Below are positions 4,828 to 53,573 of a stretch of DNA of 64,000 nucleotides, in pieces. Below the pieces are notes generated by a model. The model did no database searches. It saw only the letters and a list, made by a program, of their open reading frames with translations, and had not been told where the DNA came from. Positions within the stretch are counted from its first letter, which is position 1. The number at the start of each line of letters is the position of its first letter. The DNA is from an uncultured Bacilli bacterium (GTDB taxonomy: Bacteria > Bacillota_I > Bacilli_A > RF39 > UBA660), in the NCBI GenBank assembly GCA_934190785.1, contig CAKPTA010000001.1, forward strand, positions 111,540-175,539, written 5' to 3'. Position numbers and translations under genes: made by a program.

Positions 4828-4903
4828 TGGTGGACTGTTAGGGATTCGAACCCTAGACCCACTGATTAAGAGTCAGTTGCTCTACCAACTGAGCTAACAG
4901 TCC
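4828..4903 (-). tRNA. tRNA-Lys (anticodon CTT)
   Basis: The reverse complement GGACTGTTAGCTCAGTTGGTAGAGC...CTCTTAA...GGTTCGAATCCC...CCA folds as a cloverleaf. Anticodon loop is cTCTTaa. It is very similar to Bacillus tRNA-Lys. Confidence 0.85.
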
Positions 4904-4960: not shown

Positions 4961-5620
4961 TTAAGTCATTCTTTTAAGATATTTTACTTTTATTTTTTCA
5001 TTTGTTCTTTTTAAAATACGAGATGTATATGACTGAGTATATCCAAATATATCAGCAATTTCATCTTGTTTGTATCTTCTATCTGAATCAAAGCCATAGT
5101 ATTTTTTAACAACCTCTTTTTCAAGTGGTGGAAGGGAATCTATAATTTCCCTAATTACAGTTTTTTCGACATCTGCTTCAACTTTATCTTCTATAAGTCC
5201 ATTTGAATCTTGCACCATTTCTTCAAGTGTAAGATCTGATATGTCTCTATCACGTGAAATAATGGGCTCATTTAAACTAGCAACTTGATCGTGCTTTTTA
5301 TTTTTTCTTAGATACATAAATATTTCATTTTGAATACAAGTTGAAACATATGTAGCAAATTTAATATTAATGTTTGGGTTAAAAGAATCTACTCCTTTTA
5401 TTAATCCTAATATTGAAACACTTACTAATTCTTCTAACATTTCGCCCTTTGATCCAGCTATTTTTTGAGCATAGGATATGGCTAATCTTAAATTATGTAG
5501 AATTAATTTCTCTCTAGCTTCTGCCTCTCCATTTTCATAATCATGAGCTAATTTCATATTTTCTTCTTGTGGTAAAACTTTATATTTTTTTAAATCATAA
5601 TTTAAATTGTAACTATACAT
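4961..5620 (-). CDS. sigma-70 family sporulation-type sigma factor (SigE/SigK-like)
   Basis: KLILHNLRL and FATYVSTCIQNEIFMYLRKNK match region 2 of SigE/SigK. A region-4 HTH is near the C-terminus. There is a short (~12 aa) N-terminal extension. Confidence 0.7.
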   Translation of the reverse strand: MYSYNLNYDLKKYKVLPQEENMKLAHDYENGEAEAREKLILHNLRLAISYAQKIAGSKGEMLEELVSVSILGLIKGVDSFNPNINIKFATYVSTCIQNEIFMYLRKNKKHDQVASLNEPIISRDRDISDLTLEEMVQDSNGLIEDKVEADVEKTVIREIIDSLPPLEKEVVKKYYGFDSDRRYKQDEIADIFGYTQSYTSRILKRTNEKIKVKYLKRMT

Positions 5621-7452: not shown

Positions 7453-8040
7453 TTATATTAAAATATCTTTATAAAGAATATTAATGGATAAGCAAAGCGG
7501 CTTTAATTTTTCTAAATATATATTAGTTTCTATATCAGATATTAGTAATATATATTTAACTTTATCGTCAAATATTTTTTCTTTAATTTCTATATCATCT
7601 AAGATATAATCAACTTTCTTAACATTATCATAGGGTAGTATTATTTCAATTTCATTACCAATGATTTCATCTCTTAAACTAGCTTTTTTTAAAGCTTCTA
7701 TTACAGAGTTTGAATATGCTCTAACAAGACCACCAGCACCAAGTTTAATACCTCCAAAATATCTAATTACGATAGCAAGAATATGGTTACAATTATTTTC
7801 TTCTAATACATGTAAAATAGGCATACCAGCAGTACCACCCGGTTCACCATCATCGGAAAATCTTTTTACTTGGTTAACTATGTATGCATAACAATAGTGA
7901 GTAGCACCCTTATACTCATCTCTTATTTTTTTTAAAATAGTGTTTACTTCATCAGTAGATTTGATATGGCATAGTAAAGTGATAAATTTGGATTTTTGAA
8001 TTATATATTCATCTTCTACATTATTCCATAGCGCTTTCAT
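7453..8040 (-). CDS. yigZ: YigZ/IMPACT family protein
   Basis: GEPGGTAGMPILHVL is the IMPACT-N signature. Confidence 0.75.
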   Translation of the reverse strand: MKALWNNVEDEYIIQKSKFITLLCHIKSTDEVNTILKKIRDEYKGATHYCYAYIVNQVKRFSDDGEPGGTAGMPILHVLEENNCNHILAIVIRYFGGIKLGAGGLVRAYSNSVIEALKKASLRDEIIGNEIEIILPYDNVKKVDYILDDIEIKEKIFDDKVKYILLISDIETNIYLEKLKPLCLSINILYKDILI

Positions 8041-8162
8041 AAAATCACCATTAACATTATAACAAAATTAGTATAAAAAGCAATATTGAAGTCATAATGG
8101 TTATTTCCTTGACTATATAAAATCTATGTGATAAAATAAACAATCAAAAAAGGGGTGGCAGT

Positions 8163-9158
8163 ATGAAAAAAGTTAGAGAATATTTAAAACAATTTGAAAA
8201 CAAGTATATTGATTCATTAGATGACTTGTTTATTTTATTTGATAGTGAAAAAATAACTTTTGATCAAAGAAAACAGCTTTTAAAAGAAGTATTAAATCAT
8301 AATGAGCAACTATATAATAAAGAGAAAATAAAAAATAAAGATGTATCTAAAAAAATTATTATCTCAGATAACGAGAACGTTTCTTCTGATATTTTAATCA
8401 ATCATGAAGAGGATAGAAAACAAGTTAAAATGCTTGATGTTAAATCTTATATAGATTTATTAATGAAGTGTAATTCAATAAATGAAATAGAGCGTGTATT
8501 ACCAGCCAGTGATAGTGAGCTATATTTAGAAAAGATTAATCAAATTTTGACTGATTGTTATCAATATAAAGTTGAAGTAATTAACTTTTTAAATTCAAAT
8601 AGTGATTTAAGTGATGAAGAAGTTAGTGAATTTAAAAAAGAAGAAGAATTAATGCAATTTATAATTGAAACTATAAGAGGTATTTTATATGAGAAAGGTG
8701 ATAATTTCTTAGAAATTGAGACTTCTAATAAATTAATATTCCAGGAAAATGGTGACAGAATAATAAGCGCTTTAAAAGATATTGATAGAGAGTATTATGA
8801 TTCTTTTAAAGAATTATTATTATCTATAAAAAATGGAAATTTTAAAAGGAATAGAAGATTTGTAAATAATAACAATATTAATGGTATTTATGAAGTTAAA
8901 AATTTTAAAACAAGAATTTTATATGATCGCATTGATATAAATACATATGTTATAATTGATGCTTTTGTAAAGAAATGTGATATTGATTCCAGATATAGAA
9001 ATCGTATTCAAAATAGTATTCAAGCTTATAGAAAAGAAGAAGCTATTTTGAGAGAAAAAGTAAAGGATGCAAATTTTCTTTCGAAACAAAAAGATATTGA
9101 AGAAGAAGTGTTTGAATTACTTGATAATAGCAAGAAAAAGGTGTTAACAAATGAATGA
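8163..9158 (+). CDS. fusion protein: unknown N-domain plus C-terminal Gp49/HigB-like (RelE-superfamily) toxin-like domain
   Basis: The C-terminus GIYEVKNFKTRILYDRIDINTYVIIDAFVKK...IQAYRKEE aligns with the Gp49-like addiction-module killer pattern G.[FY]ELR....RILY......IVL.hgFVKKTQKTP...A...Y. Confidence 0.45.
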   Translation: MKKVREYLKQFENKYIDSLDDLFILFDSEKITFDQRKQLLKEVLNHNEQLYNKEKIKNKDVSKKIIISDNENVSSDILINHEEDRKQVKMLDVKSYIDLLMKCNSINEIERVLPASDSELYLEKINQILTDCYQYKVEVINFLNSNSDLSDEEVSEFKKEEELMQFIIETIRGILYEKGDNFLEIETSNKLIFQENGDRIISALKDIDREYYDSFKELLLSIKNGNFKRNRRFVNNNNINGIYEVKNFKTRILYDRIDINTYVIIDAFVKKCDIDSRYRNRIQNSIQAYRKEEAILREKVKDANFLSKQKDIEEEVFELLDNSKKKVLTNE

Positions 9159-10872
9159 TTTAGCGGTATTAATAGGTAAAAGAATTAATATTCTAAAAGA
9201 TGAAGAATTTGATAAATTAGATGATGTATGTTTTTTTGAAGCTGCAAATGAAAAAATAGAGTTTTATTCAATACTTAAAAGTAGTATAATTATAGCTAAT
9301 TTTATTGAGGATATTTTAAATAATGATGTTTTAGAAGTAGCATGTCTTGATAACATCCCAAAGATAGATGAAGTGAATATTAGTAATGTAACTAATGAAA
9401 GAACTATTGTTGTTGATATTGAAAAAAAAGTATTTAAAGTTTCGGTTCCAAAGGATTTCAAGGAAAAATTACAAGAAGAAATAAGAAATATTTCTCTAGA
9501 TGATATTGATAGAAGAGATAAAATAATTAATAAATTTATAGAACTAGTTAGAAGTAACTACAATAATTTAAAACCACAATATGATAAATATAATAGAAAT
9601 AAAACAAAAGTACTAGTTACATATATGAAACTAGCTGAGTTCTTTCAACAATTATCACTTAAGTTAGATAATTATATTTCTATACCAGACTTTGTATATG
9701 ATATACCTTATCCTGACGATTTAAAGGCTGTTTTAAATTATATTATTGAATTAAATAAAAAATTGTATTTAGAAGAAAAAAGTAAGGAGAAAAGTGCTAC
9801 TGATTTAGAACAATATGTAGAGTTATTCCTTAAATATGGTTATAACTTTAACAATTTTAATCAAGATGAGAGAGAGCTTATTTTAAATAATAGTTCATTA
9901 TCATCTTTAAGTCACATATTTGAAATTATGCCAATTGATTTAAAAAAACTTAGTAAAAGTGATTTCTTATACATTATTTTGAATACTGATGAAAGAATTG
10001 TTTCTAATATTAAAATGTTAATTTCTAATAACAACATGAAAAAAGAATTTTTTATGAATAATCCTGGCCTTTTTGTTTCAAATTTAAAAGTTAGAATGTC
10101 AGGTAATAGAGAAGTACCACTTTATAATAATTTTATGAATAATATTGATACTTTATTTTCTCTTAATAATTTTGATTATATGATTAGGAATAATTCTGAT
10201 TTATTTTTACTTTCAAATGATATTATAAAAACTAATTTAAATCTTATAACAGAATATGGCATAGATATTTATAATGACTATAATAATAAAATATATAAGG
10301 GAGATATTTTAACTGAGTCTCTATATATGGACTATGTTGATGAATTGATTGAAATGGGATACTATAGTTATATTAAATGTCATCCTGAATATATTAAAGA
10401 AAATACCAAAAATATGATTATTAGACTTAATATTGAAGATAATATAGGTGGAAATATTATTAATGAAAAAGGTAAATTTAAAAGTAGCATAACAAGCGGT
10501 AAAAACTTTTATGTTCCAGATAGTATGTTAGATAATTACCGTATACATAAAGTTAATGAAAATAAAGAAGATATTTATTTTAAACTTTTAGATAATTCTA
10601 AAAGAAATGTTATAAGTAAAGATTTATTAAAGCTTGATATTATTAAATATTTTGATTCAAAATATAAGATAAGTGAATATGAATACTGTATTGATGATAT
10701 TATTATTTCAAGAAAGAAAGTATTAAGAAATATGCAAGCGTTAATTAATTTAAAAGAAAATGATTATAATCATATGTTGCTTTCTTCAATTGAATATAAA
10801 GCTATTATGAATGATAGTGAAATTAAAACTGTATCAGATACTATTTACGGAAAAGTATTATGTAAAAAATAG
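9151..10872 (+). CDS. hypothetical 573-aa protein, translationally coupled to the preceding Gp49-like gene
   Basis: 8-nt overlap with the upstream gene. Asn/Lys/Ile-rich. No HTH or known domain recognised. Confidence 0.35.
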   Translation: MNDLAVLIGKRINILKDEEFDKLDDVCFFEAANEKIEFYSILKSSIIIANFIEDILNNDVLEVACLDNIPKIDEVNISNVTNERTIVVDIEKKVFKVSVPKDFKEKLQEEIRNISLDDIDRRDKIINKFIELVRSNYNNLKPQYDKYNRNKTKVLVTYMKLAEFFQQLSLKLDNYISIPDFVYDIPYPDDLKAVLNYIIELNKKLYLEEKSKEKSATDLEQYVELFLKYGYNFNNFNQDERELILNNSSLSSLSHIFEIMPIDLKKLSKSDFLYIILNTDERIVSNIKMLISNNNMKKEFFMNNPGLFVSNLKVRMSGNREVPLYNNFMNNIDTLFSLNNFDYMIRNNSDLFLLSNDIIKTNLNLITEYGIDIYNDYNNKIYKGDILTESLYMDYVDELIEMGYYSYIKCHPEYIKENTKNMIIRLNIEDNIGGNIINEKGKFKSSITSGKNFYVPDSMLDNYRIHKVNENKEDIYFKLLDNSKRNVISKDLLKLDIIKYFDSKYKISEYEYCIDDIIISRKKVLRNMQALINLKENDYNHMLLSSIEYKAIMNDSEIKTVSDTIYGKVLCKK

Positions 10873-10905: not shown

Positions 10906-12699
10906 ATGGATTATATAAAACAAAAACTTTCTTTGGTTCCTAATTTGCCGGGTTGTTATCTAATGAAGAATAAAGATGGGGTTATTATTTATGTTGGTAA
11001 AGCTAAAAAATTAAAAAACCGTGTTAGCTCTTATTTTAGAGGTACACATACAGGTAAAACAGCTAAACTTGTAAGTGAAATTGTTGACTTTGAATATGTT
11101 GTTGTTGGAAGTGAAACAGAGTCTCTGATTTTAGAGATGAATTTAATAAAAGAGCATGATCCTAAATATAATATTTTACTTAGAGATGATAAAAGCTATC
11201 CTTATATTGAACTTACAAACGATAAAGTTCCAAAACTTAGTGTTGTTAGAAGTCTAAATAAGAAAAAACACAAAGGTAACTTATATGGACCATATCCAAA
11301 TGTTGGAGCTGCAAGAAATACAGTTAATTTATTAAATCGTATGTATCCTCTTAGAAAATGTAATACATATAATAGTCGTCCTTGCCTTTATTATCACATA
11401 CATGAATGTCTTGGGTATTGTACTCATAAAGTAGATCAAAGTGTGGTCGCAAAGATGAGAGATGAAATAATTAAGTTTTTAAAAGGAGACCATACTTATG
11501 TAACAGAGCGTATTACAAAAGAAATGAATGATGCTGCTTTAAGTCTTAATTTTGAAAAAGCACAAGAATTAAAAGAACTGCTTGATTATATTAAAGTAAC
11601 ATTAGTTAAACAAAAAGTAGAAGTTCAAGATAACGTTGATAGAGATGTTTTTGGATATTATATATATAAAGGTTATATATCAATTCAAGTTTTCTTTATT
11701 CGCGGTGGTAAAGTATTAGAAAGGCATTCTAAGATAGCTACTATGATGGAAGACGAAGGAGAAGAACTTACAAATTATATTGCTAAGTTTTATTCTGGTA
11801 GCTTTTTACTTCCTAAAGAAGTTCTTGTACCAGAAATTGTTGATTATAATACTTTGTCAGAATTCCTATCTGTATCTGTAAAAGCCCCACAAAAAGGTGT
11901 TAAGAAAAAATTAGTTGATATGGCAAAAGAAAATGCCAAAATATCACTTTTAAATCAATTTGAAATGATTGAAAAAGATCAGACTAAAACATCTAGCGCT
12001 AATGAAGAATTAAGAAATATTCTTAAACTTGATAGTTTATATCGTATTGAACTTTTTGATAATTCTCATCTTTTTGGAACATATAGTGTTTCTGGAATGG
12101 TTGTTTTTAAGGATGGTAAACCAAGTAAAAATGATTATCGTAAATTTAAAATCATGGAAGATTCAAACGATGAATATGGAATGATGAAGGAAGTTATTTA
12201 TAGAAGGTATTTTCGCATTTTAAGAGATAACTTAGAAAAACCAGATTTAATTATTGTTGATGGTGGATTAGGACAAATTCATGTGGCAAGAGAAATCCTT
12301 AAAAGTTTAGGTATGAATATACCAGTAGTTGGATTAAAGAAGGATAATAAGCATAATACTAGTGCTCTTTTAGCTTTTGATCCTATTGTTGAAATTCCAA
12401 TTGATAAAAAAAGTAATTTATTTTATTTCTTAGAAAGAATGCAAGATGAAGTACACGATTTTACAATTGCATATCATAGACAAATTAGAAGTAAGGGTGC
12501 AGTTGAAAGCATTCTAGACAATGTAGCTGGAATTGGTAGTGTTAGAAAAAAACAATTGTTAAAAAAATATAAAACTATTACTAAAATCAAAGAAGCTGGT
12601 GTAGAAGAAATAGGAAAAATTGTTCCATCTTCTGTTGCACTTGAACTTATGAATGTAATTGATGAATACCTTAAAAATAATAAGGAACTTAAAAGTTAA
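10906..12699 (+). CDS. uvrC: excinuclease ABC subunit C
   Basis: N-terminal GIY-YIG (PGCYLMKNKDGVIIYVGKAKKLKNRVSSYF), 597 aa. Confidence 0.9.
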   Translation: MDYIKQKLSLVPNLPGCYLMKNKDGVIIYVGKAKKLKNRVSSYFRGTHTGKTAKLVSEIVDFEYVVVGSETESLILEMNLIKEHDPKYNILLRDDKSYPYIELTNDKVPKLSVVRSLNKKKHKGNLYGPYPNVGAARNTVNLLNRMYPLRKCNTYNSRPCLYYHIHECLGYCTHKVDQSVVAKMRDEIIKFLKGDHTYVTERITKEMNDAALSLNFEKAQELKELLDYIKVTLVKQKVEVQDNVDRDVFGYYIYKGYISIQVFFIRGGKVLERHSKIATMMEDEGEELTNYIAKFYSGSFLLPKEVLVPEIVDYNTLSEFLSVSVKAPQKGVKKKLVDMAKENAKISLLNQFEMIEKDQTKTSSANEELRNILKLDSLYRIELFDNSHLFGTYSVSGMVVFKDGKPSKNDYRKFKIMEDSNDEYGMMKEVIYRRYFRILRDNLEKPDLIIVDGGLGQIHVAREILKSLGMNIPVVGLKKDNKHNTSALLAFDPIVEIPIDKKSNLFYFLERMQDEVHDFTIAYHRQIRSKGAVESILDNVAGIGSVRKKQLLKKYKTITKIKEAGVEEIGKIVPSSVALELMNVIDEYLKNNKELKS

Positions 12700-13230: not shown

Positions 13231-13860
13231 ATGGATAGTAAAAGAGTTTTTATTGGAGTATACAAAGATACTAATCAAGAATCATTGTTTTACCAAAAAG
13301 ATAATGGCTTATTTCGTGATTTGATAAAAAGTAGATCTGTTTCTATTGATGAATTAGAAAGTAATTTAATTTCTTATGATAGTTTTTGTGATAATATTAT
13401 AGAACACAGCAGTAAGGCAATTTCTTATGATAGTTTTTATGCTAACATTATAGAACACAAAAGTAAATTTAAAAGAAATATGATTAAGCTATATAATTAT
13501 GATAGAATGCAGAAAGTATCGTTAAAAAGAGTGTTTATAGGGAATAGTTATGTAGTTGCTAAAATACTTAATAGAGATTTTTTTGGTTTTTCATCATGTA
13601 CAACAACTTATAGCAGTCAAAAATTAGGTGATAGAATATTATTATATTCTGAAGATTATGATCTAGAATATAGTGATTTTATTGATATAGAGAATAATGA
13701 ATATTATAAGAATTTATTTTGTCCAGAAAAAGGAGATATTTATATTTCGATAGATGATTTAAAACCGGCTTCATTAGAACTTAATATTCATGATACGGTT
13801 GTTGAAAAACAAAAGTTGTTAGAAAAATATAGAACGTATAAAAAAGGAGGTAACAAATGA
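13231..13860 (+). CDS. hypothetical protein inserted between rpsO and pnp; contains an internal tandem repeat
   Basis: 209 aa. The repeat unit ISYDSF(C/Y)(D/A)NIIEH(S/K)SK occurs twice. A second module (KRVFIG...) is also duplicated. Overlaps the pnp start by 4 nt. Confidence 0.4.
13369..13470 (+). repeat. direct tandem repeat, 2 x 51 bp (~85% identical), in-frame within the CDS
   Basis: Copy 1 at 13369-13419 and copy 2 at 13420-13470, read directly. Confidence 0.7.
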
Positions 13861-46410: not shown

Positions 46411-46536
46411 TTGACAAATATATAAAAATGTGGTAACATTTTATATTGTGTAGAGCCTCACTCTACAACCACACAGAAAAGGTTATAAACGTAAGTGCCT
46501 TAATGGTGAGTCTTAGAAATTTATAAGGAGGTTAAT
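46411..46536 (+). promoter_or_regulatory. sigma-A promoter (TTGACA-17-TAACAT) plus structured rplU (L21) leader
   Basis: Consensus -35/-10 spacing. A ~90-nt leader with hairpin tgtagag-cctca-ctctaca is in the position of the Firmicute L21 leader. Confidence 0.4.
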
Positions 46537-53400: not shown

Positions 53401-53487
53401 TTGGTGCGAGTGAAGGGACTTGAACCCCCACGCCGTAAGGCACTAGATCCTAAGTCTAGCGCGTCTGCCAATTTCGCCACACTCGCA
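53401..53487 (-). tRNA. tRNA-Leu (anticodon TAG)
   Basis: Reverse complement GCGAGTGTGGCGAAATTGGCAGACGC...CTTAGGA...long variable arm...GGTTCAAGTCCC...CCA. Confidence 0.85.
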
Positions 53488-53496
53488 AATTTTAAA

Positions 53497-53573
53497 TGGT
53501 GGACCCAGAAGGACTCGAACCTGCGACCGCCCGGTTATGAGCCGGATGCTCTAACCAACTGAGCTATGGGTCC
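53497..53573 (-). tRNA. tRNA with CAT anticodon, most likely tRNA-Ile2 (lysidine) rather than Met
   Basis: Reverse complement GGACCCATAGCTCAGTTGGTTAGAGC...CTCATAA...GGTTCGAGTCC...CCA, close to Bacillus tRNA-Ile(CAU). Confidence 0.8.

Follow-up and report, generated by a model that had tools for sequence, protein, structure and literature searches.

A two-gene element, here called A-B, lies between yigZ and uvrC in a 64,000-nucleotide stretch of DNA from an uncultured Bacilli bacterium (contig CAKPTA010000001.1, positions 111,540 to 175,539 of the forward strand; hereafter the window). Gene A encodes a 331-residue protein whose tail is a HigB/Gp49-type domain overlooked by sequence-based annotation. 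Gene B encodes a 573-residue partner that belongs to a protein family new to annotation. The two genes overlap by 8 nt, as an earlier note on this DNA had read from the sequence, and its placement of the pair between yigZ and uvrC agrees with the Pfam identities of both neighbors (Table 1).

The 3' end of A runs ...AAT GAA TGA, and the ATG of B sits within those codons with AAAAAGGTG ahead of it. Upstream, the 122-nt gap between yigZ and A contains a promoter-like site, TTGACT-17-TAAAAT, that is a consensus match only, because promoter-like sites are no commoner in this AT-rich DNA than in shuffled sequence (54 against 48.7 expected, that is, no enrichment). A terminator scan found no terminator-like site between B and uvrC, so read-through from B into uvrC is possible. 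GC content is 20-24% across the pair compared with 26-29% in uvrC, and neither A nor B contains a hydrophobic segment of signal-peptide or transmembrane-helix length.

Table 1. Features of the A-B locus, with positions counted from the first nucleotide of the window (SD, Shine-Dalgarno; ORF, open reading frame; aa, amino acids; AF2, AlphaFold2; pLDDT, predicted local distance difference test).
Feature	Position	Strand	Remarks
yigZ (UPF0029/Impact_N)	7453..8040	-	Left flank, outside the module; Pfam PF01205, E 2.5e-37
Promoter-like TTGACT-17-TAAAAT with TG extension	8109..8137	+	26 nt 5' of the A start; top-scoring in the yigZ-A gap
SD-like AAGGGGTGG for A	8150..8158	+	Strong; direct reading of the sequence
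ORF A, 331 aa	8163..9158	+	Multidomain RelE/ParE-superfamily protein (Gp49/HigB-type)
A residues 1-92	8163..8438	+	Variable helical N-terminus and linker 58-91 (AF2 pLDDT <50); aligns poorly across the family
A residues 93-185	8439..8717	+	Conserved acidic helical module; Y96, L113-P114, Y121, I128, D148; net charge -11
A residues 186-275	8718..8987	+	RelE/HigB (BECR) fold; N189, K228, K/R231, E244-V-K246, R251, Y262, F268-x-K270-K271
A residues 276-331	8988..9155	+	Two C-terminal helices; Y278 conserved in 20/24; comparable to the long alpha3 of HigB(TAC)
A/B junction	9136..9158	+	SD-like AAAAAGGTG; B ATG at 9151; A stop TGA at 9156-9158; 8-nt overlap
ORF B, 573 aa	9151..10872	+	Unannotated family, putatively all-helical
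B residues 1-212	9151..9786	+	Acidic 1-120, divergent between species; basic coiled-coil-like 121-212
B residues 213-440	9787..10470	+	Conserved core, probable helical repeats; N331, Y369, D397-x-F-I-E401-L-G, R425 (N202 nearby)
B residues 441-573	10471..10869	+	Conserved C-terminal region; F453, Y512, S520-R-x-K-V-L-R526-N
uvrC	10906..12699	+	Right flank; Pfam match; start 34 nt past the B stop

Scans of Pfam, NCBIfam, PADLOC, and PHROGs return no match for A, and PF05973, the Gp49-like/HigB family, is absent even at E<=1. A profile built from nine homologues and compared by sequence with the PDB finds coiled-coil and low-complexity noise only. The AlphaFold2 model of A, computed from an alignment of 13 homologues, has a mean pLDDT of 74 that rises to 86-93 over most of residues 190-320. 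Its predicted template modeling score (pTM) of 0.44 leaves the relative placement of the domains uncertain. Helices occupy residues 1-182 (pLDDT 72-87 over 94-182), followed by a strand at 190-193, helices at 194-206 and 209-224, strands at 230-232, 242-247, 250-258, and 261-269, and helices at 276-299 and 303-321. This beta-alpha-alpha element, antiparallel sheet, and C-terminal helix make up the RelE/HigB (BECR) topology, and the C-terminus of A very probably has that fold. The earlier note had proposed a Gp49/HigB-like C-terminus and had named beforehand the lack of such a fold prediction as grounds for rejecting it; the fold was predicted, and the toxin domain does form the tail of a 331-residue protein behind an unannotated region of ~185 residues.

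Profile comparison used a Gp49 reference built from phage N15 gp49 (the PF05973 founder, 103 bits) and six diverse plasmid homologues. With hhalign, the C-terminal profile of the A family matches this reference at a probability of 72.9% (P 3.1e-5), which is below the usual 90-95% level, over 74 columns spanning gp49 residues 9-89. The register places E-V-K on E-I-R, T-R-I on A-R-x-I-Y, and FVKK on FVKK, and the N-terminal profile of A, taken as a negative control, scores 0.09% against the same reference. Of the checks that the earlier note had proposed for PF05973, the Pfam scan was negative and the profile comparison was supportive at that lower level. Among 24 A members, PF05973 is the sole Pfam family that recurs, weakly and in five (best E 0.0036), and A itself lies below its gathering threshold of 23.9 bits. 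Three of the 24 match the C-terminal BECR part of PADLOC NsnC (positions 199-292 of 294; best E 1.5e-5). A BFVD fold search recovers small stand-alone RelE-like phage proteins only, with no two-domain analogue, and Pfam finds no PIN match in the all-helical N-terminal region of A.

The active site of HigB(TAC), a HigB from a toxin-antitoxin-chaperone (TAC) module, is known from mutagenesis and a ribosome-bound structure and comprises K58, E66, R68, N73, R77, F93, K95, Q98, and K99 (PMC9098466). Its R68, R77, and K95 correspond to RelE K54, R61, and R81 (PMC9098466). This pocket was mapped onto A with the hhalign register and by visual inspection of 24 sequences that have a mean column identity of 26%. 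Equivalents of K58, E66, R68, R77, F93, and K95 are kept in 21-24 of the 24 sequences. By position, E244, R251, and K270 are present in 24/24, K/R231 and K/R246 in 23/24, K271 in 22/24, and F268 in 21/24, while K228 is nearly invariant. The N73 loop and the Q98 and K99 residues of the KKTQKTP 'TQK' motif have no conserved counterpart among the 24. The pocket is thus largely retained yet non-canonical, since most equivalents are conserved and N73, Q98, and K99 are without counterpart. Y278, seven residues past the KK pair, may stand in for RelE Y87.

B represents a large family that indexed searches barely reveal. A word-indexed search found three relatives, and an exhaustive HMMER search against 1.84 billion cluster representatives yielded 273 at E<=1e-3 and 160 at E<=1e-10, nearly all 560-700 residues long. 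The family therefore comprises at least 273 clusters at 50% identity. No Pfam family recurs among 17 + 67 members, NCBIfam, PADLOC, and PHROGs hold no relatives, profile searches of the PDB give coiled-coil noise only, and no ATPase, ParB, or other recognizable enzyme motif was found. Neither the A nor the B family has a name or accession that could be found in the literature or databases. In an alignment of 132 sequences, conservation is concentrated in residues ~190-570. Weak profile similarity links segments 213-262, 263-312, 322-378, and 384-440 to one another (three pairs have P 2-5e-4), and a DNA-level repeat encodes F-M-N-N twice, 27 residues apart; together these weakly suggest that the core is a helical repeat array. 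A likeness to mTERF proteins, raised from the look of the motifs, has no sequence support, as PF02536 is missing from all 17 + 67 members and no mTERF chain appears in the profile-versus-PDB search.

The antitoxin position is occupied, as the earlier note had described, by a 573-residue protein without a helix-turn-helix (HTH) domain. Pfam detects no DNA-binding domain (HTH, ribbon-helix-helix, or other) in 67 B and 24 A members, and a hidden XRE-HTH in the B segments or the A N-terminus was excluded by hhalign scores below 0.4% against the cognate XRE-HTH antitoxins of Gp49 toxins.

Local hidden Markov model searches over all fetched loci show that A and B form a unit. B lies directly downstream of A in 22 of 23 distinct A loci (the window and 21 others), and A lies upstream of B at every B locus examined, a conservation that the earlier note had asked for across genomes, taking its absence in related genomes as grounds for rejection. 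The junction gap varies in the family between -59 and +2 nt, with -8 recurring. Even distant B members (P0060, P0104, and P0162, down to E 4e-12) have an overlapping A-family gene upstream, at E 5e-65 to 7e-19. The bicistronic, tightly linked or overlapping, co-occurring arrangement that defines type II toxin-antitoxin (TA) genes is therefore present in A-B. One contig carries two complete pairs in tandem (L018, 2482-8374), with A1 and A2 34.5% and B1 and B2 32.5% identical, which implies an ancient duplication or the acquisition of a second pair, each A retaining its own B. In another, a 984-residue ORF (P0135; L027, 2371-5325) fuses a full A (E 1.4e-36, residues 32-336) to B (residues 505-959), an apparently natural fusion that adjoins a Tad/type II secretion-like pilus cluster. 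There is good reason to expect that the two proteins work jointly, as a complex. A 142-residue ORF adjoining the pair in two loci (L001 and L010) was considered as a third component and found to be unrelated.

Exceptions to the pairing are few. In one locus (L020, 107-1093), an intact A with its catalytic motif shows no trace of B, so B is not universally needed to survive A. The N-terminal module of this A is divergent and lacks the LP...N.NY motif. The downstream gene, which encodes a 438-residue tRNA-synthetase-like protein, is 80% identical to the gene that follows B in L014; the 245-nt gap ahead of it (1094-1337) contains a T-box-like GGTGGCACCGCGGG motif. A 481-residue protein (P0017; L012, 3615-5060, and L013, 1622-3067) has the same RelE-like C-terminal domain behind a longer, different N-terminus and no B, which suggests that multidomain toxins of this family extend beyond the A-B pair. 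Its gene, in a spore-former, is flanked by recX on one side and spoIIIAH/gerE-like genes on the other. A divergent, partial A in L037 has lost the E-V-K and KK motifs and retains B.

The hosts of A-B are uncultured 'Bacilli/Tenericutes' metagenome-assembled genomes from gut samples. The insertion site was surveyed in 80 metagenomic loci (L041-L120) with UvrC relatives at 59-71% identity, of which 50 had enough upstream sequence. A-B precedes uvrC in none of these 50. There, yigZ and uvrC either abut directly or are separated by one unrelated gene (radical-SAM/SPASM, beta-lactamase-like, isochorismatase, or unknown). Unknown ORFs in this gap measure 154-199 residues, and a recurrent one of 154 residues in many human-gut contigs (for example L086, 5343-5807) has a weak match to GhoS, an endoribonuclease antitoxin (E 0.005). 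In other lineages, A-B occurs in quite different housekeeping neighborhoods. Given its absence from these 50 relatives and its unlike contexts elsewhere, the pair is an accessory cassette at a variable site; within its sublineage it is vertically inherited. A search for insertion scars or flanking repeats around the cassette gave AT-rich chance matches only.

Comparison with the syntenic contig L025 places A and B among the fastest-evolving genes of their neighborhood. Identities to the window are 94% for rpsO, 89% for NAGPA, 80% for uvrC, 58% for a 191-residue ORF, and 55% for yigZ, falling to 45% for A (38% in the N-terminal half and 53% in the C-terminal half), 44% for a sigma factor, and 39% for B. 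The sigma factor, of the sigma-70 family and two genes upstream of yigZ (4961-5620, minus strand), has diverged like A and B, which is unusual in a conserved block.

Variation at short range is just as uneven. Against the near-identical strain L039, A carries seven substitutions (six nonsynonymous and one synonymous), all in residues 1-185, and its RelE core and tail are unchanged; with so few substitutions, positive selection on A is not claimed. Of the 44 substitutions in B, 39 lie in residues 213-440, a cluster that looks like a recombination tract or a localized hypervariable region, not uniform divergence. The ratio of nonsynonymous to synonymous rates (dN/dS) is 0.29 in B compared with 0.05 in uvrC, and the synonymous rate (dS) is 0.15 in B 213-440 and 0 in B 1-212. 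Across 15-16 variants from within the species, A 186-275 is variable at 4.4% of positions compared with ~17% in the flanking helices, and A 93-185 is the most polymorphic part of A (17% of positions). In B, 1-2% of positions vary in residues 1-212 compared with 12-14% in 213-440.

A-B shares its fold and general principle with multidomain BECR toxins, yet it fails the features that define PF05973 (gathering score, size, and HTH partner) and Menshen/ptuXYZ. Gp49-like/HigB toxins (PF05973; phage N15 gp49-gp48, Mycobacterium tuberculosis HigB(TAC) Rv1955, and Streptococcus pneumoniae HigB) are stand-alone proteins of ~100-120 residues encoded with an XRE-HTH antitoxin of ~90-100 residues, whereas the A domain is the C-terminal third of a 314-357-residue protein and its partner is a helical protein of 560-700 residues without XRE-HTH. 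In addition, the A domain scores under the Pfam threshold and has neither the 'TQK' residues nor the N73 loop, and the pair belongs to the chromosomes of uncultured Bacilli, with no copy found on a plasmid or phage.

Multidomain toxins with a BECR fold form a recognized group that includes gp49-HTH fusions, PtuZ/NsnC, and ToxM, and they were recently catalogued (Gerdes 2025, PMC11980606). PtuZ/NsnC joins a PIN-like to a YoeB-like domain and has nuclease and ATPase partners (PMC11980606). Many multidomain BECR proteins were omitted from that catalogue since no antitoxin could be identified (PMC11980606); the B family is not described there, and a 2026 preprint on BECR classification makes no mention of Gp49 multidomain forms of the A-B type. 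Menshen (NsnABC)/ptuXYZ and A-B have in common a RelE-like domain inside a larger protein and non-canonical partners. However, the NsnC N-terminus is PIN-like and that of A is all-helical, being neither PIN-like, HTH, nor transmembrane. Moreover, the three-gene Menshen/ptuXYZ systems use a ParB/DUF262 nuclease and a P-loop ATPase, and the two-gene A-B has neither. With fused or sensor-bearing TA defense proteins and HigB-based TAC modules, A-B shares the dependence of toxin control on an extra, fast-evolving part, which is a functional analogy only; TAC modules contain a SecB-like chaperone and HigA, and A-B contains neither.

The reading preferred here, held at a confidence just under an even chance, is that A-B is a non-canonical, translationally coupled type II TA-like module, possibly of the abortive-infection kind, on the chromosomes of low-GC gut Bacilli. 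Pocket conservation, accessory insertion, fast evolution, and tandem paralogues appear to favor such a TA-like or anti-phage role. A toxin-first gene order is typical of the HigB/Gp49 family, and TAC modules use Gp49-family HigB in abortive infection (PMC11980606). By this proposal, the RelE domain of A would enter the ribosomal A site and cleave mRNA as HigB(TAC) does. A would be held inactive by acidic parts, namely its own helical module (93-185), the acidic B, or both, and coupled translation would supply stoichiometric B in the antitoxin position of the toxin-first higBA order. The fast-evolving N-terminal half of A and the repeat region of B could serve as recognition or sensor surfaces, whose disturbance would release the nuclease. 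RNase activity, ribosome dependence, neutralization by B or by the A N-terminus, and a role in phage defense are all presumed in this scheme. That B is the neutralizer or sensor is given somewhat less than an even chance.

A bolder extension, considered unlikely, is that B founds a class of large (560-700 residues) helical-repeat partners that gate a ribosome-dependent RelE/HigB RNase, acting as a giant sensor-antitoxin without a DNA-binding domain in a two-gene immunity or growth-control system of uncultured gut Bacilli. Alternatively within this extension, B could be a repeat protein that binds nucleic acid and redirects a domesticated RelE domain to particular RNAs.

Several observations weigh against the TA-like reading. 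In addition to the missing N73, Q98, and K99 counterparts, M. tuberculosis HigB2 and HigB3 lack several pocket residues and are non-toxic (PMC9098466), so the activity of A should not be assumed; that A is an active RNase is rated an even prospect. The lack of a DNA-binding domain in either protein counts on the same side, as does the AlphaFold2 model of B, which was built from three sequences and is unusable at a pLDDT of 34. Searches of 50,697 phage records, 72,556 plasmids, and IMG/VR yielded no relative of A, and PADLOC offers no system match for A-B beyond the domain-level NsnC similarity. L020 has an intact A and no B, the motif-deficient A of L037 still keeps its B, and the P0135 fusion, known from a single Logan contig, may be an assembly indel. 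Finally, A-B is possibly co-transcribed with uvrC.

Several of these points would fit a rather unlikely alternative in which A-B is a domesticated, non-selfish factor. Here, the RelE-like domain would dock on the ribosome or RNA, with or without cleavage, while B, as a scaffold of helical repeats or a binder of nucleic acid, would guide its targeting, and the role of the pair would lie in RNA processing or the control of translation. Every context is housekeeping with no mobile-element genes, synteny is held between species with 80% identical UvrC, phage, plasmid, and viral sets are without the pair, and no terminator precedes uvrC. The persistence of the L020 A without B, the repeat-like helical motifs in the B core, and the large size and uniform length of the B family are also in keeping with it. 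However, the pair is missing from the same site in 50/50 informative relatives, where unrelated accessory genes appear, and it occupies different sites in different lineages, evolves among the fastest of its neighborhood, and exists as tandem diverged paralogues. Site variability, fast evolution, and tandem paralogues indicate accessory or conflict genes rather than core translation factors. A quite unlikely alternative, drawn by analogy with fused TA proteins such as CapRel and with TAC systems, is that A is a single-chain toxin neutralized in cis, in which residues 93-185 would inhibit the RelE domain and B would be an accessory sensor, activator, or chaperone-like regulator. This acidic module lies directly ahead of a basic-pocket domain and keeps its motif although no part of A is more polymorphic, A without B exists, and fused single-gene TA modules are documented for the superfamily (PMC11980606). 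Yet the inter-domain arrangement is uncertain in the model, the N-terminal module is itself divergent precisely where B is lacking (L020), known Gp49 fusions carry an HTH-type antitoxin at the C-terminus (PMC11980606), and the near-obligate partnership with B is left to explain.

An improbable further option is that the RelE fold is catalytically dead and reused for protein interaction, with any activity lying elsewhere, for example in B. The absent N73, Q98, and K99 equivalents and the lost motifs of L037 agree with this, and invariant polar residues of B (D397, E401, R425, Y512, S520, and R526) could make a site of their own. However, A keeps E244, R251, and K270 invariant, with K/R246, K271, K228, K/R231, and F268 nearly so, at 26% column identity; its RelE core is the most constrained part of the protein, which is hard to explain without a functional pocket, and B has no recognizable enzyme motif. 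Gram-positive LXG toxins resemble A-B in layout, through a helical N-terminal region of ~185 residues, a C-terminal BECR nuclease domain, and a downstream partner gene. The idea of a secreted polymorphic toxin of the LXG/type VII secretion kind with its immunity protein is nevertheless effectively refuted. No LXG or other secretion-domain Pfam match occurs in 24 members, an L.G motif lies within the first 120 residues in 2/24 only, and no type VII secretion genes accompany the pair at any locus. A is conserved C-terminally and variable N-terminally, the reverse of polymorphic toxins, and a partner of 560-700 residues is far above immunity-protein size.

Few bacterial growth inhibitors have been studied as well as the RelE/ParE-superfamily toxins, to which A-B adds a multidomain RelE architecture that sequence-based annotation misses. 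For the B family, the near-obligate partnership with a nuclease domain is the only functional clue. If B neutralizes A or senses for it, HigB-type toxins would be controllable by something unlike a small DNA-binding antitoxin, and the pair would offer a handle on immunity or growth control in abundant, uncultured, genome-reduced gut Bacilli. A domesticated pair would be an uncommon instance of a RelE fold put to use in host physiology.

Elsewhere in the window, which contains no rRNA genes, the only RNAs at Rfam gathering level are three tRNA genes and a ribosomal protein L21 leader, with coordinates of 4831-4903 (minus strand), 53405-53573 (minus strand), and 46457-46523 (plus strand). Downstream of uvrC, a 209-residue ORF without a Pfam match (13231-13860, plus strand) occupies the interval between rpsO and pnp and overlaps the pnp start (13857) with its stop. 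Its position is conserved in L039, and it is the most diverged gene relative to that strain, with 93.8% identity (neighbors 99-100%) and a dN/dS of 0.45.

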